Positions 22,544-61,157 are shown, counted from the first letter of the stretch. The stretch is 64,000 bases of DNA from Bacteroidaceae bacterium (GCA_017516885.1 JAFXAR010000074.1:6727-70726); one strand, 5' to 3'. Notes: generated from the letters alone by a model not told the origin. A program made the numbers and translations.

Positions 22544-23599
22544 ATGATTATGAACAGAAGGATTTTAATTCTGATGATTTCCTTTTTATATCTGTTTGCA
22601 GGCACAGCGCTTGCAAACAGATATAATAACGAAGATGGGGATGAAACAGGCTATTTCAATGCAGGTGCAGAGATAGAATCCTTATGGAATTTAACAGGAG
22701 AATATTTAGCAGGTTATAAAGCCGCCGAAGCGTATTACGAAGAGGTTGCCGGTCATAGATTCCTATCGAACCGTGGACATGACCCCATTCCGGAACCTGA
22801 CAATCTGGTGGAATACTTCGCAAAGGTTCCGGACGAGATAATTGCAGTTGAAGGATGGCATTATGAACCTGGAGACTTAGAAACCAGAGACAAGTGTATC
22901 GAAAATTTTCGGGATGCCATCAAAGAGTTACAGTTATACTCCGAAGGCAAACTCCGGACATTTCCAAAAGAGAAAATCCATGAAGCATTCTTTACAATTT
23001 ACCACACGGCTTCAATGTTAGAGAGTGAGGCCGGTACACCTTTAATATGGAATCTTCTATGTTTCAGGCTAATGGAACAGACAGTAAGGTTATGCCCCGA
23101 CATAAGGATGCTGACAGATATGGTAACCGATGACGGCAGGGCCGCAATAATCGACTTGAAGAAAGAAACAGAAGAAAACTATCCAGGTAATTACCAACCT
23201 CAGTTCAATTTTATTGTGACAATCAATGAAAATGGTGAAAAGATTCTACATACAGGATCAGAGAACCGTATATACAGATTCACAAACAAGAAAGGTGAGA
23301 GTTATTACTTGGCGTCAAGCCATGGGGAATACATCTCCCCTTATAACAATGCTCTTTTATCATGTTCCATCAGTAATGGCAATTATTTTTTTGAGATAGA
23401 CGGGGAAGATGTTTTCCGCAAATGGTATCATGGCGTTGAGGAGCATGGTTATCATTATGGATTATGCGAACATATCGTGTTCAATCCCAAAGAGATCAGT
23501 TGGACAAAATGCACACAGAACGGAGACCTTTATCATCAGATAGAGGGAACTAAAAAATTATATCTTGACATAGAAGAAATCAGATTCTACACAAAATAA
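22544..23599 (+). CDS. Hypothetical secreted protein (A+T-rich orphan)
   Basis: The signal peptide is MNRRILILMISFLYLFAGTALA. No family motif was recognised. The coding sequence is visibly more A+T-rich than its neighbours. Confidence 0.6.
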   Translation: MIMNRRILILMISFLYLFAGTALANRYNNEDGDETGYFNAGAEIESLWNLTGEYLAGYKAAEAYYEEVAGHRFLSNRGHDPIPEPDNLVEYFAKVPDEIIAVEGWHYEPGDLETRDKCIENFRDAIKELQLYSEGKLRTFPKEKIHEAFFTIYHTASMLESEAGTPLIWNLLCFRLMEQTVRLCPDIRMLTDMVTDDGRAAIIDLKKETEENYPGNYQPQFNFIVTINENGEKILHTGSENRIYRFTNKKGESYYLASSHGEYISPYNNALLSCSISNGNYFFEIDGEDVFRKWYHGVEEHGYHYGLCEHIVFNPKEISWTKCTQNGDLYHQIEGTKKLYLDIEEIRFYTK

Positions 23600-23622
23600 C
23601 GGCAAACATGCCAATATCTTAT

Positions 23623-23661
23623 ACAGCAAAGGGAGTGCGTATGATGCACTCCCTTTGCTGT
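23623..23661 (+). terminator. Intrinsic terminator hairpin
   Basis: acagcaaagggagtgc-gtatgat-gcactccctttgctgt forms a perfect 16-bp stem, 24 nt after the stop of the orphan gene. Confidence 0.7.
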
Positions 23662-23938
23662 ATGTTAATGGATGGAACTATAAAATTATCTAAGATTCCT
23701 GAAAATATTTTCTTATAGGAAGAATACTATTTTAAACAGTTCCTAAAAATATTATACAAAAAACTGCAAAAATATTTCAACAAGAAAAATATTTAACTAC
23801 TTTTGAAATTGGTAAAATAGGTATAACAGACCGCAAAAAATCATAATTTTACGATTATACTGAAAAACTTATTAAACTTTAACCATTGGGGCGAAATTGC
23901 TTTCAAAAAGCAAGCAGCCCCGAAATAAAAAAAACAAT

Positions 23939-48460: not shown

Positions 48461-49651
48461 ATGCTCAGCCCCGAGACAAAAGAATTCATACAGCAGCACC
48501 TGAACGACGACACCCGCACGCTTGCCCTCAAGGCTAAGCGCTACCCCGCTGTTGACATGCTCCAGGCTGTAACGCAGATTGAGGGGTGGCAGACAGCAAG
48601 GGAAAAACTGCCTGCATGGGCTGCCGCCAAAGGTATCATATATCCTCCGCGCATATCAATGGAACAGTGCTCCAGCGAGGCCACAGCCCTGTACAAGGCA
48701 TCAATTGCCAGCGGAGAGAGACTTGCCGACCTTACAGGCGGATTCGGCATTGACTGCAGCTACATGGCACGCGCATTCCAAAACGCAACATATATTGAAC
48801 GCAACACGCTGCTATGCGACATTGCAAAAGAGAATCTCACTCTGCTTGGGCTTAATCATATAAACATAATCAACGCAAACAGCGAAGAAGCACTCCCCAC
48901 CATGCCGGAACAGGACTGGATATTCATTGACCCGGCACGCCGCGACGGCGAGGGAAGAAAGGTTGTTGCGCTAAGCGATTGCGAACCTGATGTAACAGCA
49001 CTCGAGCAGCAGCTGCTTGAGAAAGCAGGCAAGGTCATGGTTAAATGTTCGCCTATGCTTGACATAACAGCCGCAAGCAAGCAGCTGACAAGCATTGAGG
49101 CAATACACATTGTTGCAGTGAACAACGAATGCAAGGAACTGCTTTTCATACTCGGCAAGGAAAGCCGCAACGATGTGCCGATAACCTGTGCCAATATACG
49201 CAAAGAAGGAACGGAAATTTTCACATTCTTTCAGAGCGAGGAAGCATCGGCATCTGTTACATACAGCAAAACCATCGAGCATTATCTTTACGAACCTAAT
49301 GCCGCAATACAGAAAAGCGGATGCATGAGAGCATTGTCGCAGAGGTTCGCACTGAAAAAGCTGCACCCTAACAGCCAGCTCTACACTTCGGACATCCTTT
49401 GCAAGGAGTTTCCCGGCCGCACATTTACAGTTGAAAAGGTATGCGGTTTCTCAAAGAGCGACATAAAAGAGATACAGGCCATAAGACAGGCAAACATTAC
49501 AATACGCAACTTTCCCGACACAGTACAGCAGCTGCGCAAGAAACTGAAACTTGCCGACGGCGGCGAACATTATCTGTTTGCCACCACCGTTTCCGATGGC
49601 AGCAAAGTAATTGCAGTATGCAAAAAAGAGACAGGAGAGAGTATTTGCTAA
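48461..49651 (+). CDS. Class I SAM-dependent methyltransferase with THUMP-like C-terminal region
   Basis: The motif I-like DLTGGFGIDCSYMA and the IFIDPARR motif are present. The ~396 aa length is typical of this Bacteroidales family. The substrate is unknown. Confidence 0.7.
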   Translation: MLSPETKEFIQQHLNDDTRTLALKAKRYPAVDMLQAVTQIEGWQTAREKLPAWAAAKGIIYPPRISMEQCSSEATALYKASIASGERLADLTGGFGIDCSYMARAFQNATYIERNTLLCDIAKENLTLLGLNHINIINANSEEALPTMPEQDWIFIDPARRDGEGRKVVALSDCEPDVTALEQQLLEKAGKVMVKCSPMLDITAASKQLTSIEAIHIVAVNNECKELLFILGKESRNDVPITCANIRKEGTEIFTFFQSEEASASVTYSKTIEHYLYEPNAAIQKSGCMRALSQRFALKKLHPNSQLYTSDILCKEFPGRTFTVEKVCGFSKSDIKEIQAIRQANITIRNFPDTVQQLRKKLKLADGGEHYLFATTVSDGSKVIAVCKKETGESIC

Positions 49652-50991
49652 ATCAGCGCCTCCCTAATGATTTCACTTGCTGTCGGGTGCGGGAACACTG
49701 TACGGCGCAACTGCCCCACAGTCAGCCCATTGCTTATGGCCATGGCCGCCGCGCATATAAACTCGCTTCCTGAATTTCCCAATATATGCACGCCAAGCAC
49801 CTTGTCATCCTTTGAAACAAGCACCTTGCAAAGACCGGTCACGCCTTCATTCTCAGCCACGAACCGCCCTGAATAGGTCATAGGAATCTTGCAGAGCCTG
49901 TATTCAATGCCGTTTAGCAGAGCCTGCTCCTCAGTAAGGCCTACACTGCTCACCTCGGGGTTGGTATACACAACCCCGGGAATTGCATTGTACTCCATAC
50001 GGTCATCAATACCCAATATATTATTGACAGCAACCTCAGCCTCCCTGCTTGCAGTGTGTGCGAGCATTGAAAAACCAGTTACATCTCCGGCTGCATAAAC
50101 ATTGGGCATGGATGTCTGCATACACTCGTTTACCTTAATGCCGCGCTCAGCCTCAACGGAAATATTTTCAAGACCGTACCCTTTAAGCACAGCCCTGCGG
50201 CCCACGCTCATAAGTATCTTTTCGCCCTCAACCTGCAATTCGCAGCCTTCGGCATCGGTAAAGAACACCGTACTGCCCTCAATCCTTGTCACCCTGCATT
50301 GCAGACAGAATTTAACGCCACGCTTGGCGTATATGCCACGAAGCATCTCACTTGCCTCCTTATCCATTCCGCCTAAGATTTCAGGCAGCATCTCTACCAC
50401 TGTAACAGGAACTCCCAAACTGTTATAAAGACTGGCAAACTCCATTCCTATGACACCGCCTCCTATAACGACAAGGCTTGCCGGCGCTTCGGTCATAGAG
50501 AGCAGCTCACGGTTCGTAATTACCGCTCCATTGCCCTCAACGCCAGGAATAGGCGGGACAAAAGCCTCGCTGCCGGTACATACAAGCAGTTTTTCGGCCT
50601 CGTACGCCTGACCGTCACAATTTATTGTAACATACTCCTGCGTTCCCGATGCAATGTACGCCTCTCCTCGCACCACCTCAACATTGCAGGCCTCCATCTT
50701 CATCTTTATGCCCGCAACCAACTTGCGCACAACCTTTGTCTTGCGGTCAACAATCTTCTTGTATTCATACGCAACATCACTGGCTGTAACACCATACTTC
50801 TTGCTGCCCGAAGCATGGTCGTACATCTTTGCACTGTAAAGCAGCGTCTTGGTGGGAATACACCCCTCGTTCAAACATACACCGCCTAATTCACGTTTCT
50901 CAAAGAGAACCACTTTAAGCCCCTTTGCCCCTGCACATTCAGCAGCCACATAGCCGGCAGGACCGCCGCCAATAATTGCCAAGTTATACAT
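49648..50991 (-). CDS. lpdA: Dihydrolipoyl dehydrogenase
   Basis: The FAD motif is IIGGGPAGYVAA. The redox disulfide GGVCLNEGCIPTK, the NAD motif VIGGGVIGMEFA, and C-terminal HPTASE are also present. Confidence 0.92.
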   Translation of the reverse strand: MYNLAIIGGGPAGYVAAECAGAKGLKVVLFEKRELGGVCLNEGCIPTKTLLYSAKMYDHASGSKKYGVTASDVAYEYKKIVDRKTKVVRKLVAGIKMKMEACNVEVVRGEAYIASGTQEYVTINCDGQAYEAEKLLVCTGSEAFVPPIPGVEGNGAVITNRELLSMTEAPASLVVIGGGVIGMEFASLYNSLGVPVTVVEMLPEILGGMDKEASEMLRGIYAKRGVKFCLQCRVTRIEGSTVFFTDAEGCELQVEGEKILMSVGRRAVLKGYGLENISVEAERGIKVNECMQTSMPNVYAAGDVTGFSMLAHTASREAEVAVNNILGIDDRMEYNAIPGVVYTNPEVSSVGLTEEQALLNGIEYRLCKIPMTYSGRFVAENEGVTGLCKVLVSKDDKVLGVHILGNSGSEFICAAAMAISNGLTVGQLRRTVFPHPTASEIIREALI

Positions 50992-51282
50992 AATACAAGA
51001 TTTCTGTTATAGAACTTTATTTATAAATTCAGGCTGATGCCATAATCCCTACTACTCCGCATTATGCCACAGCCACCAATGCAAACATATAAAAAAACCC
51101 GGAAGCATGCAAAAAAAGCGGAAGAGATTATATGCAATGCAAAACAGGGCGCAACATTTCCACGGTAGAGAAATACAGCGAGCTGCACAAAGAAATACTC
51201 AACAGCAATAACAAATACGCTAAAACTCTGTGAAGATTGTTACATCAAACCCATGCCATTCAGCCACTAGTGTCTGAAATCA

Positions 51283-52392
51283 CTAAATTTCAAGAATGGG
51301 TTTACCAAACAGTTCCATGCTGCTGAATAAAAAGTACTCCAAGCGCCCATTGTTTGCACGCAACTGGGCAAGAAGCTTGCCAAGAATGTTGCAGCCGAAA
51401 TAATATTTCCGTCCACCTACTTCAACAAGTTCTGCGCCCCAGAAAAGTCTTGATGGATAGTTCTTGCCTGTACCATCTTCTACCGGCAGCTTTGATGTTG
51501 AATGAAGCACCTCACGAAAGGCAGCAATATCACGGTACTTCAGGCAAAGACAATACTTCATCCATTCTACTTGCATCAATTTCCAGAACATGCGCTCATG
51601 GCCTCGGAATTTACTCTTATATTCAATTTTCTTAAGTGCATCAACGCGGCCGTAACACTTATCGCGCTTCATATTACCCATATATAGGTTATCGCGCAGC
51701 CACTCATGTGCCTCGGCGCTATTCATTCTTGCCATCACAAAAAGAATCTCTAACTGGCGAAAATAAAAGTCACCATAGTGCATCCAGTTCTCCTTAGGCT
51801 CATTTATAGGCACTAATGCCATATTGTCAAGAATGTAATATGGGGTGTTCTGATCTGTGACGAATGGCTGGCATTCCTCGGCCGGATAAAGTCCGAACTT
51901 TTCCAGTTCTGCAAAATCACGCTGATTCTTAGGCATGAGTTCGTCAGGGTTGTATACAACCTGCTGCAAATCTTTATTCAGTTTGCTGTCTTTTAACCGG
52001 GTTTGAATATACTCAATCAAGGAGTTGCCATTTTCCGCAGCTTCAGGATGCAGAATTCCGTCAATAAAATCATTTGAAATCTCAAAGCTTTTGATTACAT
52101 CATCAAGTATCTCGTCTTCATCAACCCCCTGTTCATAAAGTTCCTCTGCAATGCGCTCACAGGCAAATCCGTATAATTTATCGTAAAGTTCAGGTGCTTT
52201 CTCGCAAAAGAACTCATCTGTAAACATGCCGCCCTCAACATGTTCTTCTCCATCAGGAAACTCTTGCTCACAATATTCCTTTATCAACTGGGTCAATTGC
52301 TTGTATTCCTTGTTTGTGATTCTGCAATCCACATCAAACGGTTCTCCTTCACCTTCGCAATAATACTTTAAAGTAAGCTGAATTGTTTTCAT
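51283..52392 (-). CDS. Hypothetical protein with acidic N-terminal half and NADAR (DUF1768/YbiA)-like C-terminal half
   Basis: The C-terminal ~170 aa follow the NADAR layout: W..MQVEWMKYCLCLKYRDIAAFREVLHSTSKLPVEDGT ... LFWGAE.....GCNILGKLLAQLR. For comparison, the family pattern is W..vM...l..KF.....l...Ll.T....LvE.....WG.....G.N.LG..Lm..R. This was judged by eye only. Confidence 0.5.
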   Translation of the reverse strand: MKTIQLTLKYYCEGEGEPFDVDCRITNKEYKQLTQLIKEYCEQEFPDGEEHVEGGMFTDEFFCEKAPELYDKLYGFACERIAEELYEQGVDEDEILDDVIKSFEISNDFIDGILHPEAAENGNSLIEYIQTRLKDSKLNKDLQQVVYNPDELMPKNQRDFAELEKFGLYPAEECQPFVTDQNTPYYILDNMALVPINEPKENWMHYGDFYFRQLEILFVMARMNSAEAHEWLRDNLYMGNMKRDKCYGRVDALKKIEYKSKFRGHERMFWKLMQVEWMKYCLCLKYRDIAAFREVLHSTSKLPVEDGTGKNYPSRLFWGAELVEVGGRKYYFGCNILGKLLAQLRANNGRLEYFLFSSMELFGKPILEI

Positions 52393-52482
52393 AGGTCAAT
52401 TTTTTATTGTATATTCTTTTTGCGAGAGACAAAAATAGCGCATTGCTGTACAATGTTACTGCACTGACAAGACATTTTGCCC

Positions 52483-52662
52483 TTAGTCGTATTTATGAAG
52501 TTCAGTATGTTTTTCGGAAACAGCCATAAGGGTGCGCCTATAATTTATGGTATCAGCCTCCTTTGCCTTCTCCCACCAACAGGAGAGTTCTTCTTGGGCA
52601 AGGTTGTTTTTGCAGGCAATCTTGCAGAGAAGGCGATACAGCAGCCTGTTTGTGCTGTTCAT
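52483..52662 (-). CDS. Small hypothetical protein (59 aa), possibly co-transcribed with the NADAR-like gene
   Basis: An internal ATG of the listed 98-aa ORF gives MNSTNRLLYRLLCKIACKNN... A TAnnTTTG box lies 23 nt upstream. It lies 90 nt upstream of the NADAR-like gene on the same strand. Confidence 0.4.
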   Translation of the reverse strand: MNSTNRLLYRLLCKIACKNNLAQEELSCWWEKAKEADTINYRRTLMAVSEKHTELHKYD

Positions 52663-52684
52663 GCAAATAGCAGTTTTAGTTTTA

Positions 52685-52692
52685 CAAAAATA
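52685..52692 (-). promoter_or_regulatory. Candidate -7 box (TATTTTTG) for the minus-strand small ORF / NADAR-like operon
   Basis: The plus-strand caaaaata matches the reverse complement of the consensus. A possible -33 (plus-strand caaa at 52715-52718) lies ~22 bp away. Confidence 0.4.
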
Positions 52693-52803
52693 GAGAAAAA
52701 ATAGAGTTTCTGTGCAAATTAAAGCATCAACTATGCTGAAGAACTGCACACCCACACTGAAATTTAAAATATTTGCCAAGACCCTAATGTTTCCACGCAG
52801 CAG

Positions 52804-52835
52804 TTTGCTTTATCGGCAATAAAAAGCTATATTTG
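52804..52835 (+). promoter_or_regulatory. Candidate promoter of the WYL regulator gene (-33 TTTG at 52804-52807, -7 TATATTTG at 52828-52835)
   Basis: Both consensus elements are present with a 20-bp spacer. The -7 box ends 19 nt before the ATG at 52855. Confidence 0.55.
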
Positions 52836-52854
52836 TATAAAGAAAAACCCAACC

Positions 52855-53862
52855 ATGCCACTCAACAAAAATGCTCTTCTGCGCTATAAGACATTAGACC
52901 GCTGTTTCAGCAGCGGCAGCACTGAATACACAATAAAAAGGCTGCTTGATTCGGTTAACAGCACCTTAATTAAGGAAGGACTCTACGGCATAAGCCTTAG
53001 ACAACTGCGCGATGACATTAAGACAATGCGCGAACTTTACAAAGCACCTATTGAGCCAAAGGTATACGATCATAAGAAATGCTACTATACCTATACCGAC
53101 AATAAATTCTCAATTTTCAATAATGGAATGGATGAAAAAGAGTTTAATGCGCTTCGCGCAACAATAGAGATGCTTGCCAAATACCGCACAGGAAACAGCT
53201 GGCTCGAAGAACTGCTCACAAGCCTTGAATACCGCTTCAATATAAAGCCCAACAGCAAGAAGATTGTTGCATTTGATGAGAACAGAGAACTTAAAGGCAT
53301 AGAGTTCTTGTCGTCCATAATCCAGCATGCCATCAACAATAAGGCAATATCCTATACCTACCGCTCGTTCCGTGGCCACGAAGAGGAATACACACTGCAT
53401 CCTTATTATATAAAGCAGTACAATGGACGCTGGTTTACTTTTGGCTGGGAATCGAAATATGGCCGATACTCAAATTTTGCACTTGACAGGACTGTGGGCA
53501 TTAAACCATCGGCCGAAGAGTTCATTGAAGAGAAAAGAATTGACTATGAGGAGGCGCTGAAGGATATTATAGGCGTAACAGTACCCGAGAACTGCCCGAG
53601 CGCCACAGCTATAAGACTGAAGTTTAGCAAAGAGAGATTCCCATACGTTCTCTCAAAGCCCTTGCACAGTTCACAGCAGATTATTGACCACGATGAACAT
53701 ATAATAGAGATAAAGGTAAAGAGAAACAAAGAACTTGACCAAATTGTTTTCTCTTATATCCCCGACATTGAAGTCGTCTCGCCAAAAGATTACCGCGAAT
53801 ACATTATTGAAAAAATAGAGACAAATCTCAATCTCTACAAAAGCGTGCAACAGCAGGCTTAG
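52855..53862 (+). CDS. WYL-domain transcriptional regulator (N-terminal HTH, central WYL, C-terminal extension)
   Basis: The N-terminus MPLNKNALLRYKTLDRCF is typical of Bacteroidetes WYL proteins. The WYL core is YTLHPYYIKQYNGRWFTFGW. Confidence 0.8.
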   Translation: MPLNKNALLRYKTLDRCFSSGSTEYTIKRLLDSVNSTLIKEGLYGISLRQLRDDIKTMRELYKAPIEPKVYDHKKCYYTYTDNKFSIFNNGMDEKEFNALRATIEMLAKYRTGNSWLEELLTSLEYRFNIKPNSKKIVAFDENRELKGIEFLSSIIQHAINNKAISYTYRSFRGHEEEYTLHPYYIKQYNGRWFTFGWESKYGRYSNFALDRTVGIKPSAEEFIEEKRIDYEEALKDIIGVTVPENCPSATAIRLKFSKERFPYVLSKPLHSSQQIIDHDEHIIEIKVKRNKELDQIVFSYIPDIEVVSPKDYREYIIEKIETNLNLYKSVQQQA

Positions 53863-53926
53863 TATTGTAAACAAGCATAATGGTTAAGAATCCTTAATCG
53901 GACAGAGTTTCATTTGTCATTTTCAT

Positions 53927-53962
53927 TTGTCTGTGCAGAACCCCTGCGCAGACAATGTTTTT
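53927..53962 (+). terminator. Intrinsic terminator after the WYL gene
   Basis: ttgtctgtgca-gaacccc-tgcgcagacaa forms an 11-bp stem with one G-U pair in RNA, followed by tgtttttctttg. Confidence 0.6.
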
Positions 53963-54083
53963 CTTTGCATACACAATCAGGAAAAAGCCTTTAGGGATAT
54001 TCTAAAAATTAGGCCAAAATAAGAACCTGCCGGCATAGAGCATTTGATTGCTAACCTATAAACTTCACTAAAATACTACAACT

Positions 54084-54812
54084 ATGAAAAAACAAGGAAA
54101 CGCAGAGATTGCAGCACGCATTGATTCACTCATGCAGAGTTTGGAAAGCGAGACGCTCACAAAAGAGCAGATGAACGAATGTTACAGAGAGCTTGACTTA
54201 ATAAAGAAAGAGTACGACCTTTTTGACATAGCCTTTGAGGAGAGCGGAAAGTCAGGTATCAAGGACATTTCAGGCAGAATACGCGTGCCGGCAATGTACA
54301 AGGAATTTCCGGCACTGTTCTCCTATCACTGCCACCGCAACGGACCTATTGCCGCCATGGACTTCAATGACAAGTACGCCATAGTTGCCACTGACGGCAC
54401 TGGCGCTCCGCTCTGCGACTTTAAGTACGACTACATCTACTATATGTTCGGAACGGATAACTTCTTTGTCTGCCTTGACGGCGAAGGGGACAACGTCGCA
54501 GGCGGAGTACTCAATGCCAAGGGAGAGCTTATAGTTCCTTGCAAAATGGACACTATCTATGAGTTCGCCAACAACTATGCAGCAGTTGAGAAGAACGGCA
54601 AATTCGGATTGCTTGCATACGACGGCACCTTCATTGAGCCCATATATGACGATGTAGAGGATGAGGAGGGGGTGATAAAAGTATGCAAAGATGGAAAGTG
54701 GGGTTATTTGAGCAGAGACTTGGACTTCATTGCAGAGGAGGAGTGGGAGCGCATGGAGAACATAGAACTGCTTGACTTGTTCACTTTTCCTTGTTCAAGG
54801 CAGAAGGATTGA
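54084..54812 (+). CDS. WG-repeat (KWG-like beta-repeat) protein, no signal peptide
   Basis: Repeated units follow the pattern G..G.I....G..I.P..YD.I, for example EKNGKFGLLAYDGTFIEPIYDDV and CKDGKWGYLSRDLDFI. The N-terminal ~55 aa are helical. Confidence 0.75.
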   Translation: MKKQGNAEIAARIDSLMQSLESETLTKEQMNECYRELDLIKKEYDLFDIAFEESGKSGIKDISGRIRVPAMYKEFPALFSYHCHRNGPIAAMDFNDKYAIVATDGTGAPLCDFKYDYIYYMFGTDNFFVCLDGEGDNVAGGVLNAKGELIVPCKMDTIYEFANNYAAVEKNGKFGLLAYDGTFIEPIYDDVEDEEGVIKVCKDGKWGYLSRDLDFIAEEEWERMENIELLDLFTFPCSRQKD

Positions 54813-54899
54813 CAAACAACAAAACAGAGGCAAACCGCAAGCGCATATTTTAGAAGCCGCTTGAATTTATATCACGGATTTTACAACTGACGAAAAAAC

Positions 54900-56588
54900 A
54901 TGAGAAAACTAAAAACAAGAAGAGGGAACTTGAGTTCAGGAATACATATAAAGGACAGCGTCACCGGTCCGGGAACGATAATCTCCGCTATGGAAACGAT
55001 TGTTGTAGCGGCAAACGACAGCGAGTTGAACGACGAAATGCTGGCTGCAGCAAAGCCAGCCTTTGATACTCTGAAGGAGAGACTCGCGGTTACTGATATG
55101 CAGGCCATCGTCATCAGTATGCTCATCGACTCTGACTGCACGCTCTCCACCGGCCGTATGGCCAACTATCTTGGTTTGAGGAACATACGCATGCTTACCT
55201 ACGTTGCAGAGATAGAGGAGCTTGTTGAACGGCGAATTGTAAGCAAGGTTTCAGGCAGTTTCGAGAACGGGTACAAGATAAGCCCCAAGGCTCTTGCCGC
55301 ATATATGAGAGACAAGGAGTATGTACACGTTGTAAACAAAAACATATCTGCCGGTGAGATGATAGATACTGCTATGGACATAATGGGTAGTTTCAAGAGT
55401 GAGGAGATTACACTCAAACAGATGCAGCAGGACATTGAAGAGCTTGTCGAGAGCAACAAGAATATTGTATTGGGCAAGAAGGCGGCAAAAGTGGGCACGG
55501 ACGAGAAGATTCTTTTTTTCTTCTGTCTCGGCAAATATGTCAACGAGGGCGACTGCAACATTGTTGACCACGATTACAGAGACCTCTATGCCGAAAGGAT
55601 GTTCGGCGGTTTCCAAAGTTCAATCATCAACCGCAGCAACGCGCTGTTCACCCAGGGACTGCTCGGAGATGGCGAAGGCGGCGGCATCTCTTCGCGCGAC
55701 TGCATAACTGTCTCGGAGGAGATACGGGAGTACATCAACCGTGAACTGAATATCTGTTGGGACAGCAATAACGAGAACTATCGCAAGGGGCTGCTCATTC
55801 ACGAGGATATTGTTGCAAAGGAACTCTTCTACAATGGCGAGGACAGTATCTCCATCAAACGTCTTGCCACAATGCTCAAGGAGGAGAACTTCAAGGAGAT
55901 ACAGCAGCGTATGCGTGAGAACGGCATGCGCAACGGTTTTGCCTGTCTGTTCTACGGTGCACCCGGCACAGGAAAAACCGAGACGGTGCTTCAGTTGGCG
56001 CGCAGCACAGGACGTGATATAATGCAGGTGAACATTGCCGGTATAAGAAGCAAATGGGTTGGCGAGAGCGAGAAGAATATACGCGGCATATTCAACCGCT
56101 ACCGCGCCTGCTGCGAGAAGAGCGAGAAGAAGCCCATTCTGCTTTTCAACGAGGCCGATGCGGTTATTGGCAAGCGCTTGACGAATGTAGAAAGAAGCGT
56201 TGACAAGATGGAGAACTCGTTGCAAAATATCATTCTTGAGGAGATTGAGAAACTTGACGGTATTCTCATTGCCACCACTAACCTCACATCAAACATGGAC
56301 ACCGCCTTTGAGCGCCGCTTCATATACAAGGTAGAGTTCCATAAGCCCGATGTAGAGACCAAGAAGCTTATATGGCAGTCTATGATAAGCGAACTTGCCG
56401 ATAATGATGCAGCGATACTTGCAAGCGAATTTGACCTCAGTGGCGGACAGATAGAGAACGTAAAGCGCAAGCAGGTGGTGGACAATATACTTTATGGAAC
56501 AGCCCCTACACTTGATGCGCTGCGCGCTTACTGCACACAGGAGGGTATGGGTACAAAAGGAAATAATTATTCACGAATAGGTTTTTAA
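54900..56588 (+). CDS. Classic-clade AAA+ ATPase with ~340-aa unassigned N-terminal region
   Basis: Walker A is GAPGTGKT (nt 55956-55979, aa 353-360). The Walker B region is ILLFNEAD (aa 413-420). Sensor-1 is ATTN, and the Arg-finger region is MDTAFERRF. The N-terminal half has a possible winged-helix segment (GRMANYLGLRNIRMLTYVAEIEELVERRIVSKV). The start codon is uncertain. Confidence 0.85.
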   Translation: MRKLKTRRGNLSSGIHIKDSVTGPGTIISAMETIVVAANDSELNDEMLAAAKPAFDTLKERLAVTDMQAIVISMLIDSDCTLSTGRMANYLGLRNIRMLTYVAEIEELVERRIVSKVSGSFENGYKISPKALAAYMRDKEYVHVVNKNISAGEMIDTAMDIMGSFKSEEITLKQMQQDIEELVESNKNIVLGKKAAKVGTDEKILFFFCLGKYVNEGDCNIVDHDYRDLYAERMFGGFQSSIINRSNALFTQGLLGDGEGGGISSRDCITVSEEIREYINRELNICWDSNNENYRKGLLIHEDIVAKELFYNGEDSISIKRLATMLKEENFKEIQQRMRENGMRNGFACLFYGAPGTGKTETVLQLARSTGRDIMQVNIAGIRSKWVGESEKNIRGIFNRYRACCEKSEKKPILLFNEADAVIGKRLTNVERSVDKMENSLQNIILEEIEKLDGILIATTNLTSNMDTAFERRFIYKVEFHKPDVETKKLIWQSMISELADNDAAILASEFDLSGGQIENVKRKQVVDNILYGTAPTLDALRAYCTQEGMGTKGNNYSRIGF

Positions 56589-56622
56589 AGCACTGTATAG
56601 CATATTAAACTAAAAATATCTT

Positions 56623-57033
56623 ATGACAGCATTGAAAAAAGAGAATTTGAATTCAGCAAAAGTTGGCAATGACTACAGGATTAAGAGCGTAGAACTTTCC
56701 ACCAATGGCCACAAGGAGTTGTACTTTGATGTTGAATGGGACGGCAATGAACCGGACTACTATGAATTGAGAGTGTTTGACAAGAACAGGAACTGCCTGG
56801 AGTGCATGCCATACGCATCGCACAAGCAGAGAATTGTGGTTATGGATTTCTATACCGATTTAGAGTCCAAAAAGGTAAACCACGAGACTTTCTATGTTGA
56901 ATTGGGTGTGGCTGAGTACTCCGACACCGAAGAGCTTGTAAAGTGGGAGGCGTTGGCAACTTATGAACCAATCAGACAGGACATCTACTACGAGAGCCGT
57001 CTCTTCCGCAAGAATGTGCTGGAACTTAGATAA
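56623..57033 (+). CDS. Hypothetical protein (136 aa)
   Basis: The ORF starts 35 nt downstream of the AAA+ gene on the same strand. No family was recognised and there is no signal peptide. Confidence 0.55.
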   Translation: MTALKKENLNSAKVGNDYRIKSVELSTNGHKELYFDVEWDGNEPDYYELRVFDKNRNCLECMPYASHKQRIVVMDFYTDLESKKVNHETFYVELGVAEYSDTEELVKWEALATYEPIRQDIYYESRLFRKNVLELR

Positions 57034-57065
57034 ATATCAAACAATCCCATAAAAAGCTATCAGAT

Positions 57066-57158
57066 ATGAAATATATTGATTTACTGATTCTAGGTCTGAG
57101 TCTTTTACTCTTTCTCAGGTCACTGTCATTCGCCATCACCGTTTACACCAGAAGGTAG
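57066..57158 (+). CDS. Candidate 30-aa hydrophobic micro-protein (below ORF-track cutoff)
   Basis: Manual translation gives ATG at 57066, MKYIDLLILGLSLLLFLRSLSFAITVYTRR, and TAG at 57156-57158. It has one predicted TM helix with a basic C-terminus. It lies in the 253-nt gap between two island genes on the same strand. Confidence 0.3.
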   Translation: MKYIDLLILGLSLLLFLRSLSFAITVYTRR

Positions 57159-57292
57159 TCACAAAAGACAATGATTGCGAGGTCTCCTTTATCAGAGGTT
57201 ACGAAAAGACCACTAAACACAAGCTATATGCAAACCTATGGTGCTGTGTATACATGATATATCTGTTTCTTTACCAATAAAACATATTGTAT

Positions 57293-57997
57293 ATGAACAA
57301 CGACAAGAATAGCGCGAAGCCATTAACCCGCGAAGTGCTGGAGGATTTCACCAACCGATGCGCAAGGCTGAATATGTACGAGCAAGGCTCTGATGAGTAT
57401 CTTGCACTCCGTTCTGCACTTGACGAAGAGGCCTATGGATACTGTCAGATGTCAGATTATGAACAGATTGTAAAGGAGGATGGAAAAGAGGGGGTGAAGA
57501 ACGGGCTTCTGAATTACTATATTGTACCTCCTGTATTTGACAAGGTAATGTATGCTACAAATATATGCCACAACTACATTGTAGCCAAGAATGGCAAATA
57601 TGGCATAACGAAGGCCGACGGCAAAGGCACGATGGCATTGCCCTGCATGTTCGACAGCATTGAAATGTTCAATACCTTCTTGGATGTTGTCAAGTTCAAA
57701 GCCGGCGGCAAATGGGGCATTATAGAACTTTATAGCGATGGTTGTGCCAAAGTGGTGACCGGTGCCGAGTATGATGAGATTTGCGAAACCGACACACAGT
57801 TCCTGTTATTGAGACAGGAAAGAAAATATGGGTTGTACAGGTATGGATACATACTGCCGGCCGGGTTCGATAGAATCTTTGTCCCTGAAATATTGGGCTG
57901 GATAAAGGTAATGCAAAACGGTGTCTGGGGTTATGTTGATGCAGACAACAAGTTCACCGAAAGGCTCGACGAGGCTTTTTTGCACATTTGCTATTAA
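57293..57997 (+). CDS. WG-repeat protein, paralog-like to 54084..54812
   Basis: The ATG at 57293 is preferred over the TTG at 57287. Repeat units include KNGKYGITKADGKGTMALPCMFDSI, KAGGKWGIIELY, ERKYGLYRYGYILPAGFDRI and QNGVWGYVDADNKF. No signal peptide is present. Confidence 0.75.
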   Translation: MNNDKNSAKPLTREVLEDFTNRCARLNMYEQGSDEYLALRSALDEEAYGYCQMSDYEQIVKEDGKEGVKNGLLNYYIVPPVFDKVMYATNICHNYIVAKNGKYGITKADGKGTMALPCMFDSIEMFNTFLDVVKFKAGGKWGIIELYSDGCAKVVTGAEYDEICETDTQFLLLRQERKYGLYRYGYILPAGFDRIFVPEILGWIKVMQNGVWGYVDADNKFTERLDEAFLHICY

Positions 57998-58051
57998 AGA
58001 GTCCTATATGTTGGTTATAGATAAAAAATAACATACATTTGTGGTGTAAAC

Positions 58052-58660
58052 ATGAAAAACCGATCTGTTATGGAACTTAAGAAACACACTCCCGAGGAGT
58101 TTGAACTTATGAGCGACGAGGAATATGAGAATTATGAGACCAGACTGTTTGACATCGCCAACGATATCGGGCTCCAAAGAAACAGTTTAGAGGAGTTGGA
58201 AACCGCACTCCTGAACATAAAAGAACTTGCCAAGAACAAGAAAAAAAGGTGTGGACATATGTATTGGCAATGTAGCAAAGAAGAGACCAAATGCATGAGC
58301 AACATATTGTCGGCAGCGGAAAAGTTCAGAAAAACATTCATCAAAGAGATTGCGGAATTCATAGGCGAAGGTATGCTTATTCTTTCCCGAGCTATAAAGT
58401 ACAAAGATATATATGGAGGGAGTTATGTGATAAAAAACATCTACAAGGAGCGTTGCTATGACCTATATGATGAATGTGAGTATACCGAAGTCATTTCTTG
58501 TGCAGAAAACCCCGGAGATGAAGAAACTATTGAAATGCACCTGCTGCCGGTGGATGTTCTAATGAAAATTTATCTTAAGATAGTCAACGGCGACGCCTTG
58601 CTTGTGTCCGACGAGGAACTGATTGCTTGTAACATCAATAGCGAAGAGATAAAATTATAA
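58052..58660 (+). CDS. Hypothetical protein (202 aa), acidic, A+T-rich coding sequence
   Basis: The last same-strand ORF of the island. No family was recognised. Confidence 0.55.
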   Translation: MKNRSVMELKKHTPEEFELMSDEEYENYETRLFDIANDIGLQRNSLEELETALLNIKELAKNKKKRCGHMYWQCSKEETKCMSNILSAAEKFRKTFIKEIAEFIGEGMLILSRAIKYKDIYGGSYVIKNIYKERCYDLYDECEYTEVISCAENPGDEETIEMHLLPVDVLMKIYLKIVNGDALLVSDEELIACNINSEEIKL

Positions 58661-58841
58661 TCCGCAATAGACAAACATTAAACCAATTCATTATGAAACC
58701 ACATCACCGTTCTCACTTTTTTATTTGACAGTTTCAGTTTGAACGGTGCTGGCGAGGGCATGGGGCTTAAGTTTAGCTACGGAGTGCATCTTGCAGATTT
58801 TCACTTACATGCAACCAAGCAACAGCAAACGGATGTTTCAC

Positions 58842-61157
58842 TTACTCAATGTCGCGGGAGAAGGAATACGGAGCATCTTCGTCGGCCGTGCCTCGAGAGA
58901 AGTTGGGTTGCGATGTCATGAACATCTTCAAGCGCGCGCCGCCGGCAAGCGCTTTATGCGTAATATAATTATGATTGTATTTTTTGCCGTTTAGAAGCAT
59001 ACGCCCAATGTAAATATTTTCGTTGCTGTTATCTTTTGCGTCAATGAGCACCCGCTTGCCATTTTCAAGAGTAATTACCGCACGCCTGAACAGCGGCGCG
59101 CCAAGCACATATTCACCGCTTGCCGGACACACAGGATAAAAACCGAGCGCCGAGAAGACATACCAGGCCGAAGTCTGTCCGTTGTCCTCGTCACCGCAAT
59201 ATCCATCAGGGGTTGGAGCGTACATGCGCTGCATTACCTGGCGTAGCCAATACTGAGACTTCCAAGGTTCGCCGGCATAGTTATACAGGTAAATCATATG
59301 CTGGACAGGCTGATTGCCATGAGCATAATTGCCCATGTTCATCACCGTCATTTCGCGTATTTCGTGAATGGGAAAGCCATAGTAGCTGTCATCATACACC
59401 GGTGGCACAGCAAACACCGAATCAAGCATCTGAACAAATCTCTTTTTGCCGCCCATGAGATTGACCAGTCCCTGTACATCGTGGAACACCGACCATGTAT
59501 AGTGCCAGCTGTTACCCTCAGTAAAACAGCCGCCCCACTTGAGCGGGGAAAAATCGCGTTCAAAAGTTCCGTCGGCATGCCGCCCGCACATCAGGCCATA
59601 ATCCTTGCGGAAAAGATTGCGGTAATTCAAGGCACGCTTTTCAAGTTCGTCAATCTCATTCTGCGGTCTCTTCAAAACCTTTGCCACCTGCAAAATACAC
59701 CAGTCATTGTAGGCATACTCCAATGTGCGCGCAGCGCTCTCATTTATGCCCGCATCACAGGGGATATAACCCATGCTGTTATAGTATCCGTGCCCGGTAC
59801 GTCCTGTGGAAGAGACCTTTGGATGCACAGCAGATGCACCATGCAGCAATCCTTCATAAAGAAGGGCAGAATCAGCAACACGAACCCCCTTGACAAACGC
59901 ATCGGCAAGCACCGATGCCGAATTGTTGCCCACCATGCAGTCCCGGTGTCCCGGACTTGCCCATTCGGGGAAAAAGCCGCTCTCGCGATACGCGTTCAAA
60001 AGTCCCTCCTGTATTTCGGCATTTACTGAAGGATATACGAGATTAAGGAGCGGGAATAGGGCGCGGAACGTATCCCAGAAACCGGTATCTGTATACATAT
60101 ATCCCGGGAGTACCTTGCCGTTATAGGGGCTATAATGAAGAATTCTGCCGTCGGCCGCAATCTCATAGAACTTGCGCGGAAAGAGCAATGAACGGTAGAG
60201 ACAGGTGTAAAAGGTACGCATTTTATCAATGTCACCGTCAACATCAATGCGGCCGAGCACGCTCCTCCAGCGCTCATGCCCTTGTTTCACAAGGTTATCA
60301 AAAGAGGAATTCCCAAGCTCATTTAAGTTTATTGCCGCCTGTTCGGCGCTTATGAACGATGAGGCAACGCGTGCATGCACAGTTTCGCCTTTAGAGGTTC
60401 TGAAGCCTATTACAGCGCCAGTGTGATACGCGGTCTGCTGCAAAGCATCTTCACTGAGCACCGGCCGGGAAGCTGTGTCGGCCTTGAAGGTTGCTGTGTA
60501 CTCAAACGGCTTGTCAAACTGCACCACAAAATAGTTTCTGAAGTTCTCAGGCACTCCGCCGCTGTTGCGCGTAGTGTAGCCGGCAATGGTATTGCTTTCG
60601 GGGATAATCTCAATATGCGAGCCCTGGTCATAAGCATCTATCACCACATAGGAATCGCTCTGCGGGAAGGTAAAGCGGAACATCGCAGCACGCTCCGTTG
60701 GGGTTAGTTCGGCAACTATATCATAGTCGGCAAGATATACCTTGTAATAGTGAGGCTGCGCGGTCTCCCCTTTATGCGAGAACCAGATTGCACGCTCTTT
60801 TTCATCCATGCTTGGCCTCCCCGTTACAGGCATTATGGAGAACTGGCCGTAATCGTTTATCCATGGACTTGGCTGGTGCGTCTGCTCAAATCCATATATT
60901 TTGCTTGCAGTGTAGGTATACTTCCAGCCATCGCCCATAGGAGCTGTGCGGGGCGTCCAAAAGTTCATGCCCCACGGCATGGCTATGGCAGGATATGTAT
61001 TTCCTGCCGATAGTTCAAATGTGGACTGCGTTCCCATAAGAGGATTCACATACTGCACTTTGCAGGCCTCGTCAGAGCAAAAGCTCTCCCCGCTACGCTG
61101 CGCAAGCAGTGGAAGTGAAAATCCAATAAGAGATATGATATACAGTAGCCTTTTCAT
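58842..61157 (-). CDS. GH92-family alpha-mannosidase
   Basis: A signal peptide is present. The motifs GFWDTFRALFPLLNLVYP, CFTEGNSWHYTWSV, YAHGNQPVQHMIYLYNYAGEPWK and GDEDNGQTSAWYVFSALGFYPVCP are characteristic of GH92. Confidence 0.9.
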   Translation of the reverse strand: MKRLLYIISLIGFSLPLLAQRSGESFCSDEACKVQYVNPLMGTQSTFELSAGNTYPAIAMPWGMNFWTPRTAPMGDGWKYTYTASKIYGFEQTHQPSPWINDYGQFSIMPVTGRPSMDEKERAIWFSHKGETAQPHYYKVYLADYDIVAELTPTERAAMFRFTFPQSDSYVVIDAYDQGSHIEIIPESNTIAGYTTRNSGGVPENFRNYFVVQFDKPFEYTATFKADTASRPVLSEDALQQTAYHTGAVIGFRTSKGETVHARVASSFISAEQAAINLNELGNSSFDNLVKQGHERWRSVLGRIDVDGDIDKMRTFYTCLYRSLLFPRKFYEIAADGRILHYSPYNGKVLPGYMYTDTGFWDTFRALFPLLNLVYPSVNAEIQEGLLNAYRESGFFPEWASPGHRDCMVGNNSASVLADAFVKGVRVADSALLYEGLLHGASAVHPKVSSTGRTGHGYYNSMGYIPCDAGINESAARTLEYAYNDWCILQVAKVLKRPQNEIDELEKRALNYRNLFRKDYGLMCGRHADGTFERDFSPLKWGGCFTEGNSWHYTWSVFHDVQGLVNLMGGKKRFVQMLDSVFAVPPVYDDSYYGFPIHEIREMTVMNMGNYAHGNQPVQHMIYLYNYAGEPWKSQYWLRQVMQRMYAPTPDGYCGDEDNGQTSAWYVFSALGFYPVCPASGEYVLGAPLFRRAVITLENGKRVLIDAKDNSNENIYIGRMLLNGKKYNHNYITHKALAGGARLKMFMTSQPNFSRGTADEDAPYSFSRDIE

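Follow-up and report, generated by a model that had tools for sequence, protein, structure and literature searches.

The window, the whole 64,000-nucleotide stretch of Bacteroidaceae DNA analysed here, carries an island of ~7.4 kb (51283-58660) flanked by lpdA and GH92. Seven open reading frames in it are intact, encoding a NADAR-like protein (NADAR-L), a WYL regulator, the WG-repeat protein WG-A, an AAA+ ATPase, orf136, a second WG-repeat protein (WG-B) and orf202, and all lie where a sequence-only reading of the locus had placed them. That reading had described an intact system of eight genes; the island is instead an eroded copy, in which two of the listed reading frames are gene stumps, and in which genes for an ADP-ribosyltransferase (ART) and a membrane protein have been destroyed. 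Searches of the island genes against Pfam, PADLOC and other profiles placed none in a housekeeping family and none in a named defence system. Nor are the genes orphans, as some had been called: homologues occur in other species, and the ATPase belongs to a family found in Bacteroidales. Related loci are referred to by number; L141 holds the intact reference copy, and L139 a variant with a frameshifted ART.

NADAR-L (369 aa; 51283..52392, minus strand) reaches 31.1 bits (E 3.4e-7) with Pfam NADAR, below the cut-off of 35.1, and its earlier assignment is upheld by an hhalign profile-profile probability of 99.4% against NADAR-S, the bona fide NADAR family linked to ART genes in related loci. NADAR-L joins a p126-like N-terminal part (about 52048-52392), which has its counterparts in separate genes of 118-126 aa in L002 and L145, to a divergent NADAR domain (51283-52026); orthologues of 239-259 aa (E~1e-100) are present in L002, L009, L013, L097, L100, L145 and L147. 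On the same strand, a UG39-type (UG/Abi class 2) reverse transcriptase (RT) gene survives as a C-terminal stump at 52513..52728, found by tblastn with the L135 RT: residues 499-570 of 573 align at 50% identity (E 2e-14), and the DNA is 85% identical to the 3′ end of that gene. The divergent 59-aa reading frame (52483-52662, minus strand) listed previously is part of this stump. The order RT then NADAR-L is conserved in L147 and L013.

The regulator (335 aa; 52855..53862, plus strand, as are all features that follow) has WYL (45.1 bits) and WCX (33.9 bits) domains, both above the Pfam cut-off, matches PADLOC WYL profiles at E 1e-24 and shares 74% amino acid identity with the WYL protein heading the L135 cassette. 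A pattern search found a Bacteroidetes-type promoter motif, TTTG...TAnnTTTG, at 52804..52835, 20 nt 5′ of the start codon (chance alone would give 2.0 matches to this pattern across the window, where 9 occur), and a terminator scan with direct reading of the sequence found an intrinsic-terminator-like hairpin, a 12-bp stem followed by a T-run, at 53927..53955, 3′ of the gene. The regulator was thus rightly credited with its own promoter and terminator.

WG-A (242 aa; 54084..54812; Pfam WG_beta_rep 52.8 bits) occupies a slot directly 5′ of the AAA+ gene that is filled in most loci of the sub-clade nearest the window; L147 and L007 lack WG, and in other clades the slot is taken by the gene for a BspA-type LRR protein or by a different variable gene. 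WG-A is 44% identical to its L141 counterpart, against 93% for AAA+, and 44-58% identical where AAA+ is 91-93% identical. DNA homology between the window and L141 begins exactly at 54900, the AAA+ start codon, marking a recombination breakpoint; by these alignments WG-A is swapped relative to AAA+. WG-B (234 aa; 57293..57997) scores 23.8 bits, below the 25.6 cut-off, and matches WG-A by BLASTP (26% identity, E 7e-7), so that the two were correctly described as paralogues, if distant ones. Copies of WG-B 81-84% identical hold the same position in L135, L139 and L141.

The AAA+ ATPase (562 aa; 54900..56588; Pfam AAA 83.8 bits) consists of an N-domain specific to its family (residues 1-335), with a winged-helix-like and a helical portion, and a motor of the classical clade, which in PDB profile and Foldseek searches matches VAT, Cdc48/p97, Rpt, FtsH, Vps4 and Msp1; its AF2 model has a pLDDT of 81.5. 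It retains Walker A, a KWVG pore loop and RR fingers, and an invariant N417 in Walker B, where in this family N replaces the Mg-binding D, so that the ATPase activity is putative. The clade of the motor, the pore loop and the arginine fingers point to a predicted hexameric protein unfoldase of Cdc48/Vps4 type. The N-domain was found solely in proteins of ~545-590 aa; the family is restricted to Bacteroidales, has a private 335-aa N-domain and resides in variable islands where genes for defence and repair abound.

Directly 3′ of AAA+ is orf136 (56623..57033), a predicted β-sandwich protein with 107 homologue clusters, all unnamed; its AF2 model is all-β (pLDDT 88.5), with weak Ig/FN3-like structural matches alone. 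The same adjacency holds in 10 distinct loci including the window (the others being L097, L099, L101, L102, L135, L139, L141, L145 and L147). Next comes a membrane-protein pseudogene, c35 (57066..57277), recognised from a gap in blastn alignments with L135 and L141 and by direct reading. The hydrophobic 30-aa micro-ORF listed earlier (57066-57158) is what remains of the 5′ end of this 167-aa gene, the 3′ stump spans 57134-57277 (residues 120-166 by tblastn, 79% identity, E 2e-21), and ~283 nt are deleted between them; the intact gene encodes 166-176 aa with four hydrophobic segments by eye. The last intact gene is orf202 (58052..58660), whose homologues (194-198 aa) form 36 clusters, none of them named, and which has no relatives in Pfam, PADLOC or PDB; since homologues are shorter (194-196 aa), its true start is probably 58070, giving 196 aa. 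In L141, L002 and L115 orf202 lies directly 5′ of ART.

An ART stump (PARP/ART-PolyVal-like) follows at 58693..58828. It was detected with an HMM built from 12 related ARTs and run on the island translated in six frames (E 2.9e-5), and by tblastn (37 aa aligned at 51% identity, E 2e-6 when the whole window was searched), and the sequence was read directly. It has a +1 frameshift and YHG changed to HHR, and is cut off after ~45 codons beside the GH92 stop codon (58842); DNA homology to L141 (89%) spans orf202 into ART and ends at 58797. The earlier statement that no effector could be recognised had overlooked this stump. The effector is missing through gene loss, as the operon of relatives has an ART and NADAR pair and a multi-pass membrane protein.

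Erosion is established by the RT, c35 and ART stumps, each with significant protein and DNA matches at syntenic positions; judged from these alignments, deletions in the window have left little of RT and almost nothing of ART, have cut out the central part of c35 and have removed NADAR-S. Assembly error is an unlikely source of the deletions, for eight independent contigs share the identical sequence; all sampled contigs of the source species are 100% identical, so that the dN/dS values speak for past selection. By these values the surviving genes have been under purifying selection (AAA+ 0.06 against L135, orf136 0.15, WG-A 0.16, WG-B 0.34).

The island had been called A+T-rich. It is the lowest-G+C stretch of the window, and none of 440 windows of the same size falls as low (minimum 46.2%, sd 1.2), but the spot estimates of 32-43% against 55% give way to a modest computed contrast, 43.2% in the island and 48.8% outside it. 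GC3 of AAA+, WG-A and orf136 (0.58-0.59) is not below that of flanking genes (0.54-0.55), so composition is a weak sign of recent acquisition. Acquisition is better argued from related cassettes: over the block of AAA+, orf136, c35, WG-B and orf202, DNA identity to L135, L139 and L141 is 86-89%, and the genomic surroundings of these loci are unrelated. No integrase, tRNA, flanking direct repeats or Rfam element was found in or beside the island, which speaks against its being cargo of a recognisable prophage or ICE, and all 21 contigs with an identical LpdA carry it.

As predicted, the genes are found together beyond the source genome, in further species and at chromosomal sites that are unrelated. 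In L141 the order is WG-A, AAA+, orf136, c35, WG-B, orf202, ART, NADAR-S, with intergenic gaps of 3-73 nt, and in the sub-clade nearest the window the recurrent operon ends in ART and NADAR. ART, intact or as a remnant, accompanies AAA+ in ~17 of the 20 distinct sub-clade loci with enough sequence. The cassette is often headed by a WYL regulator and often accompanied by a second NADAR gene, NADAR-L, which follows either a UG39-type RT or the p865/p126 gene pair. The regulator is nonetheless optional; in the wider AAA+ family, 31 of 88 loci have a WYL homologue no more than 10 kb away. Neighbours in relatives include UG39-type RT, GmrSD, Mrr_cat, PLD and PD-(D/E)XK nucleases, HipA and WYL. ART adjoins or overlaps NADAR-S in relatives; of the four nearest relatives, two (the window and L139) have an inactivated ART and a third (L135) has none, and NADAR genes persist despite this wherever the sequence reaches them. 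This linkage, and the repeated loss of ART while NADAR genes stay, argue that ART is the toxic effector.

We conclude that the island is probably an eroded, ‘disarmed’ copy of a multigene conflict cassette, most likely anti-phage, that circulates in gut Bacteroidales. The original proposal of a conflict or stress system keeps its support from co-occurrence and defence-type neighbours, and loses its assumptions of intactness and of a mechanism that could not be named. In the mechanism we propose, the private N-domain of AAA+ would dock adjacent binding proteins. WG-A, hypervariable relative to AAA+, with a breakpoint at the AAA+ start codon and a slot filled in other clades by LRR or other variable genes, could be the specificity adaptor or sensor, and orf136 a second adaptor. 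Upon infection or damage the motor would remodel or remove a protein that restrains the effectors, candidates being the NADAR antitoxin or orf202; the freed ART would ADP-ribosylate nucleic-acid bases, and/or the membrane protein would be freed. NADAR enzymes would undo the modification in uninfected cells, and the WYL protein would set transcription upon a nucleic-acid signal. Having lost the killing arm, the window copy could, we infer, at most sense, remodel and de-ADP-ribosylate through NADAR-L; it may give immunity against foreign ART toxins or simply be heading for loss.

A tentative alternative, unlikely yet deserving weight, is that the locus is not one machine but a patchwork in a shared defence hotspot, of WYL, WG/AAA+/orf136, an orf202/ART/NADAR-S toxin-antitoxin and RT/NADAR-L. 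Gene content and order around AAA+ are highly variable between loci, and the ART-NADAR pair is convergent in L004, where it occupies the opposite strand, and in L008 it is ~8 kb distant, so the AAA+/WG module and this pair could be separate co-travelling systems. L135 has the AAA+ module without any ART, L143 has orf136 and NADAR-L without AAA+, and many wider-family AAA+ genes stand alone beside a WYL gene. The AAA+ module, whose AAA+ and orf136 are under strong purifying selection, would then have its own activity, for example unfolding a phage protein recognised by WG, and would still be complete in the window. Against separate systems, the operons of L141, L145 and L147 are tight and on one strand (gaps of 3-73 nt), the sub-clade association with ART spans 44-93% AAA+ identity and differing flanks, and ART is also found near more distant AAA+ clades (L040, L117, L125).

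It is also conceivable, and in our view improbable, that the island serves not killing but damage repair and immunity, the AAA+ family, NADARs and WYL answering damage to nucleic acids or ribosomes by incoming toxins (ARTs, ribonucleases); the window would then keep the protective half, with NADAR-L de-ADP-ribosylating bases, AAA+ clearing damaged complexes and WYL sensing. The AAA+ family occurs in <WYL >RtcB >PrfH >AAA+ operons in five species and beside HAD_SAK_2, metallophosphatase, NT5C, HD and DEDDh-exonuclease genes; with RtcB-PrfH and HAD_SAK_2 as neighbours, a damage-response role fits as well as a killing role. PafBC-type WYL regulators, moreover, respond to DNA damage. NADAR genes were retained while ART was lost two or three times, and orphan NADAR antitoxins are used against DarT1 (PMC11825919), which we count in favour of this reading. 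However, intact cassettes have an ART and membrane protein of their own, the neighbours GmrSD, Mrr and UG39-type RT are offensive defence genes, and no link of WG, orf136 or orf202 to repair was found.

It is very improbable that a prophage, an ICE or a different recognisable mobile element carries the island, or that it is an ordinary housekeeping cluster: AAA+ homologues do occur on two IMG/VR contigs (full-length, 35-38% identity) and on large phage-like contigs (AAA modules, 44-52%), and the AAA domain matches PHROG phrog_3757 (E 2e-37), but the island lacks the mobility features sought above, sits between lpdA and GH92 and accompanies every identical LpdA, while the sporadic distribution of the wider AAA+ family, its varying flanks and the two copies in some genomes rule out a housekeeping role.

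Several known systems resemble parts of the disarmed cassette. The regulator is like WYL defence regulators of the BrxR, CapW and PafBC type in its WYL and WCX architecture, its place at the head of a defence-type operon and its own promoter and terminator; unlike BrxR- and CapW-type regulators it adjoins no BREX or CBASS, and it is optional. The best defence-library match of AAA+ is IetA/IteA (PADLOC E 5e-26, NCBIfam E 9e-24), and both are classical-clade AAA motors in defence islands. IetAS reportedly pairs the IetA AAA ATPase with the IetS subtilase (Gao et al. 2020); here the match is limited to the AAA domain (84 bits against a cut-off of 510), the N-domain is private and there is no protease partner. 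CmdTAC comprises an ART toxin, an antitoxin and a chaperone. To it and to the TRIP13-HORMA pair of CBASS the likeness would be in logic alone, a remodelling ATPase or chaperone controlling the sensor or antitoxin by which a toxic effector is gated; AAA+ is matched weakly by TRIP13 profiles (E 3.5e-9), and there is no HORMA, CD-NTase or SecB-like gene and no homology beyond the AAA fold.

The window RT is assigned to the UG39 group through its L135 homologue, which matches PADLOC RT_UG39 (E 1.7e-111; filed under DRT). Mestre et al. 2022 (PMC9226505) rated UG39 RTs ‘inconclusive’ for defence and reported a VirE/PriCT-2 partner for them, whereas here the RT precedes NADAR-L and, in the window, is a 72-residue relic. 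A further resemblance is to DarTG toxin-antitoxin defence, above all DarTG1, in which the ADP-ribosyltransferase DarT1 has a NADAR antitoxin. NADAR proteins reverse guanine and cytidine ADP-ribosylation and serve as DarT1 antitoxins (PMC11825919, PMC12945103), and in relatives a ~190-aa H-Y-E-type ART is followed immediately by a ~200-aa NADAR (56.7 bits, above the Pfam cut-off). This ART differs from DarT in having no DarT match, sub-threshold PARP, ART-PolyVal and DUF3990 matches and no PDB relative, and unlike DarTG1 the pair belongs to an operon of 6-8 genes that also encodes AAA+, WG-repeat proteins and a membrane protein. The window has lost the NADAR-S partner by deletion and keeps the toxin gene as a pseudogene stump. 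The pair in relatives nevertheless has the layout and enzyme logic of DarT1-NADAR, of which the window retains a NADAR homologue and the ART stump.

The island between lpdA (49648-50991, reverse strand) and the GH92 gene (58842-61157, reverse strand) is a truncated and mosaic version of a conserved cassette that passes from genome to genome, and it sits among defence genes. In the window its two plausible effectors and a neighbouring reverse transcriptase (RT) are pseudogene stumps, and this version is unlikely to work as a killing system. An ORF listing agrees with the seven substantial genes that the sequence-only reading had placed between the two flanks. A NADAR-like gene (369 aa, 51283-52392) lies on the reverse strand. 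On the forward strand are a regulator with WYL and WCX domains (335 aa, 52855-53862), the WG-repeat protein WG-A (242 aa, 54084-54812; Pfam WG_beta_rep), the AAA ATPase (562 aa, 54900-56588), orf136 (136 aa, 56623-57033), a second WG-repeat protein, WG-B (234 aa, 57293-57997), and orf202 (196-202 aa, 58052/58070-58660). WYL, WCX, AAA and the WG repeats of WG-A score above their Pfam cut-offs; WG-B and NADAR fall just below theirs. The regulator scores 45.1 bits for WYL (cut-off 21.8) and 33.9 for WCX (cut-off 23.9) and matches the PADLOC WYL profile at E 1e-24 in an alignment that begins at residue 44; Pfam gives it no HTH family at E<=0.1. The WYL gene is probably its own transcription unit, as had been proposed, since it has a Bacteroidetes-type promoter motif 20 nt to its 5′ side and a strong hairpin plus T-run on its 3′ side. 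A sigma-70 promoter scan was uninformative for the window (20 matches versus 15.7 expected).

Island G+C is 43.2% versus 48.8% for the remainder of the window, and is the lowest among 440 equal-size windows (minimum 46.2, sd 1.2). The A+T-rich contrast described earlier is therefore real, at a size far below what spot counts had implied. Its chief sources are the NADAR, WYL and orf202 genes and the non-coding stretches; GC3 of the AAA+, WG-A and orf136 genes (0.58-0.59) is not below that of lpdA and GH92 (0.54-0.55). The block has 86-89% DNA identity to three loci in other genomes (L135, L139 and L141), where the flanks are unlike the window's. The same block at unrelated loci, together with the lowest G+C, identifies a horizontally acquired genomic/defence island. 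It is present in 21 of 21 contigs with an identical LpdA and is 100% identical in all contigs of the species. As a separate observation, the kilobase with the lowest G+C in the window (36.2%, 23001-24000) overlaps the gene (22544-23599) for a 351-aa protein whose N-terminus resembles a signal peptide; a 1185-aa SusC-like gene follows closely on its 3′ side.

The loci of the window's sub-clade came from a metagenome scan and from look-ups, both of exact proteins and of homologues of orf136 and orf202, and were tabulated by tblastn. Whether the gene order recurs elsewhere had been posed as a check, and it does: the same-strand order is repeated among these loci and is complete in L141, whose AAA+ protein is 93% identical to the window's. 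There the order is WG-A (237 aa), AAA+, orf136 (136), the membrane protein c35 (167; four hydrophobic segments, judged by eye), WG-B (234), orf202 (194), an ADP-ribosyltransferase (ART, 186) and its linked NADAR, NADAR-S (198), with intergenic gaps of 3-73 nt. L145 and L147 are further intact examples. AAA+ is followed directly by orf136 in ten distinct loci, the window included, and ART, intact or as a remnant, is found in approximately 17 of the 20 loci with enough sequence. Common additions are an HD protein between WG-A and AAA+, PfkB, a BspA-type LRR protein, a SprT-like protein, a Ser/Thr kinase with c22, and NADAR-L, the second NADAR. Pfam at E<=1 gave nothing usable for c35, c22 or three other proteins (p935, p298 and p414). 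In the contig of locus L140 the whole cassette is duplicated in almost perfect inverted form, the two copies meeting at the NADAR genes; this is probably an assembly artefact.

The stumps in the window were located by DNA and protein comparison with L135, L139 and L141. The c35 pseudogene (57066-57277, forward strand) carries an internal deletion of about 283 nt. What had been called a 30-aa hydrophobic micro-ORF consists of the gene's first ~25 codons and some out-of-frame sequence, and the last 47 codons persist in another frame (79% identical, E 2e-21). The first ~45 codons of ART survive at 58693-58828 (forward strand), with a +1 frameshift and HHR in place of the YHG motif. Homology to L141 in DNA (89%) extends from 57135 across orf202 into ART and ends at 58797, 45 nt from the GH92 stop codon; the remaining ART, NADAR-S and anything beyond them have been deleted. 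On the reverse strand, the last 72 residues of an RT of the UG39 type (a UG/Abi class 2 group) remain at 52513-52728 (E 2e-14), a stretch that includes the earlier-listed 59-aa ORF. This stump shares the strand of the NADAR-L gene and lies directly 5′ of it, and the order RT then NADAR-L is intact in L147 and L013. That the stump derives from a group II intron or a retron was rejected, since 50900-58900 has no Rfam match at E<=1 and the RT is UG39-like. Both small ORFs are gene stumps. The absence of an effector in the sequence-only reading reflects loss by deletion, and the ART stump was overlooked there; that reading is confirmed in part as an observation, and its conflict-system interpretation has partial support.

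Erosion is recurrent across the family. In L139 (10617-11179; also L140) the ART gene shifts frame after about codon 34 and meets a stop further on, with NADAR-S intact 3′ of it; the toxin gene was inactivated independently here. L135 has no ART, and the central part of its orf202 is missing between two direct repeats of 18 nt (window 58106-58123 and 58601-58618); the match of the deletion end points (L135 13504-13513) to these repeats suggests repeat-mediated deletion. L143 (9001-10137; also L144) retains only an orf136 homologue and NADAR-L, beside yjdM and with no AAA+, and has the look of an L147-type island reduced still further, in the same chromosomal neighbourhood. The window illustrates this decay, the toxin and the membrane effector going first and the antidote-type and sensor-type genes staying, a pattern that bears on the counting of ‘defence systems’ by domain matches alone.

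The ART of the relatives has the conserved pattern YHG...Y...E and matches PARP, ART-PolyVal and DUF3990, all below cut-off; a PDB search with its profile gave nothing significant. NADAR-S lies 3 nt 3′ of ART in the relatives and scores 56.7 bits with Pfam NADAR. The NADAR that survives in the window is instead NADAR-L, 6 kb from the ART stump and on the opposite strand. It scores 31.1 bits with PF08719 (gathering score 35.1) over 159 of 163 profile positions, matches the NCBIfam NADAR model at E 8e-11, and aligns with the NADAR-S family in hhalign at 99.4% probability (E 8e-22); searches against PDB NADAR structures, by single sequence and by profile, gave no sequence match. By these profile comparisons its homology to the NADAR family is secure. 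The 369-aa protein is a fusion: residues 1 to ~116 resemble the product of a separate 118-126-aa gene (L002, L145), with nothing usable from Pfam at E<=1, and residues 123-369 resemble the 239-aa NADAR-L. The gene 5′ of NADAR-L is either a UG39-type RT, 10-13 nt away (L147 11572-14028; L013 18654-21110), or the p865/p126 pair (L002, L009, L145). NADAR enzymes reverse base ADP-ribosylation and act as DarT1 antitoxins (PMC11825919, PMC12945103).

The AAA+ protein scores 83.8 bits with PF00004 (Pfam cut-off 21.2). A PDB profile search found VAT, AFG2, p97 and Vps4 (E 1e-30 to 1e-17), and Foldseek with its AF2 model (pLDDT 81.5) found Rpt, FtsH, spastin and Msp1. These searches assign the motor to the classical clade with VAT, p97, Rpt, FtsH, Vps4 and Msp1, which are protein unfoldases. 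Invariant in an 18-sequence alignment are GAPGTGKTE (Walker A), SKWVGESE (pore loop 1), ATTNL (sensor-1) and AFERRF (SRH arginines). Walker B is non-canonical (ILLFNEAD): the alignment (A1) has a family-wide Asn for Asp, invariant N417, at the Mg-binding site in LLFNEAD (residues 416-418; window 56146-56154, forward strand), with the catalytic Glu present. Pfam at E<=1 gave nothing usable for residues 1-335, which are winged-helix-like and helical. Among 1.84 billion representative proteins this N-domain matched 494 clusters at E<=1e-3, almost exclusively at the N-terminus of 545-590-aa proteins, which indicates one coherent family with a private N-domain. Homologues of the same length are numerous (42-92% identity) and unnamed.

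The best AAA+ matches are nearly all from Bacteroidales (80 species genomes), at loci with differing flanks and in two copies in some genomes; the family is accessory and island-associated. Neighbour clustering placed a WYL homologue within 10 kb of AAA+ in 31 of 88 loci. Other repeated neighbours are RtcB with PrfH, HAD_SAK_2, PLD and PD-(D/E)XK nucleases, a DEDDh exonuclease, MoxR with vWA, GmrSD and a sigma-70-like pair. Five species have the order <WYL >RtcB >PrfH >AAA+ (L014 7949-11689, L029, L030, L046 and L076), with AAA+ 38-39% identical to the window's; there the unfoldase shares an operon with RtcB2-PrfH, a pair that rescues and repairs ribosomes. In another AAA+ clade the genes directly 5′ of AAA+ encode a sigma-70-like protein of ~240 aa and an unknown protein of 189 aa (L116 7736-11743; also L020, L022, L106, L107, L112 and L118). 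Large phage-like IMG/VR contigs (61-261 kb; L126, L128, L129 and L130) encode an AAA module 44-52% identical to window residues ~300-562, joined to N-terminal regions that differ from the window's.

The AAA+ start codon is the precise point at which DNA homology to L141 sets in. Identity to L141 is 44% for WG-A and 93% for AAA+, and identity to L135 is 58% and 91%, so that the gene 5′ of the motor has been exchanged or is fast-evolving; the WYL protein is 74% identical to the L135 copy. Compared with L135, dN/dS is 0.06 for AAA+, 0.15 for orf136, 0.16 for WG-A and 0.34 for WG-B, so that selection has kept these four genes over most of the divergence. WG-A belongs to PF14903 (52.8 bits, cut-off 25.6). 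WG-B scores 23.8 bits, below that cut-off, and is homologous to WG-A (BLASTP E 7e-7); both have a helical N-terminal segment followed by WG β-repeats, and sequence search found no solved relative of either. PDB sequence searches with WG-A and orf202 gave nothing significant. The orf136 protein has 107 homologue clusters and an all-β sandwich AF2 model (pLDDT 88.5). The Foldseek comparison proposed for this orphan was run against PDB and BFVD and returned only weak, generic Ig/FN3-like β-sandwich matches (TM ~0.45); we take the protein for a non-enzymatic binding module or adaptor. The orf202 protein has 36 clusters and no detectable relatives outside them. None of the searched libraries had a name for WG-A, WG-B, the AAA+ N-domain, orf136, orf202 or c35.

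We propose that AAA+ would act as an unfoldase whose N-domain docks the exchangeable adaptors WG-A and orf136, and that it would gate the ART/NADAR toxin-antitoxin, the membrane protein, or both, under the WYL regulator. We infer this gating from operon tightness, co-occurrence, the hypervariable 5′ gene, the repeated loss of ART with NADAR kept, which is expected of a toxic gene, and NADAR biochemistry (PMC11825919, PMC12945103). One main rival is that the AAA+ module and the ART/NADAR pair are two separate systems travelling together. The association of AAA+ with RtcB-PrfH suggests a second, in which the family serves in the damage response and not in killing. There is no support for a prophage, ICE or housekeeping origin, and site-specific integration was rejected, as the window has no tRNA and the island no flanking direct repeats.

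If AAA+ really gates the toxin, a protein-unfolding step would be added to the known abortive-infection triggers. Tentatively, and leaning against it, we also raise a broader proposal: that the Bacteroidales-specific AAA+ family, with its private N-domain and Cdc48-like motor, drives a new class of immune systems. An unfoldase with exchangeable WG/LRR adaptors and a β-sandwich cofactor would license varied effector or repair modules (ART/NADAR toxin-antitoxin with membrane protein, RtcB-PrfH ribosome repair, sigma-factor pairs), and the window would be a natural ‘effector-less’ form of the ART-armed version. This unnamed family is common across an important clade and amenable to experiment, and today's catalogues of defence systems give gut Bacteroidales poor coverage. 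What emerges from the comparative data is a cassette that can be tested.

Against the anti-phage models of PADLOC-DB v2 and NCBIfam no island protein reaches a system-specific model; as also with PHROGs, matches are generic (WYL and AAA domains), so that the proposed library check returned domain families and no named defence system. WG-A, orf136 and NADAR-L had no match to these anti-phage models, and WG-B and orf202 had only marginal matches to unrelated ones (BrxL E 2e-3, LmuB E 5.5e-4). Our literature search found no paper linking WG_beta_rep/PF14903 to defence or describing the cassette, and nothing on the AAA+ family among Bacteroidales defence discoveries. Membership in IetAS, TRIP13/CBASS or DS-32 was ruled out by cut-offs and absent partner genes. 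The best AAA+ library match is IetA/IteA, through the AAA domain only (NCBIfam 84.3 bits, cut-off 510); IetS is a subtilase-type protease, and no protease domain occurs in the island ORFs or recurs beside their homologues. DS-32 (PRTase and NADAR; preprint 10.1101/2025.01.08.631726) shares the NADAR fold alone (41 bits, cut-off 240). UG39 RTs are described with a VirE/PriCT-2 partner, unlike the RT and NADAR-L pairing in L147 and L013. The window WYL protein, with its WYL and WCX domains, is an ordinary member of the BrxR/CapW-like regulators. The ART/NADAR pair of the relatives would work as DarTG1 does, although the ART is not DarT by any test run (no DarT match). The antitoxin adjoins the toxin in the relatives (NADAR-S) and not in the window, where the toxin is only a 45-codon frameshifted ART stump. 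We did not find the combination of a Cdc48-like AAA+ unfoldase with a DarTG-like ADP-ribosylation toxin-antitoxin described, and we class the cassette with the ADP-ribosylation toxin-antitoxin defences, extended by an AAA+/adaptor module, the window instance being a degraded example.
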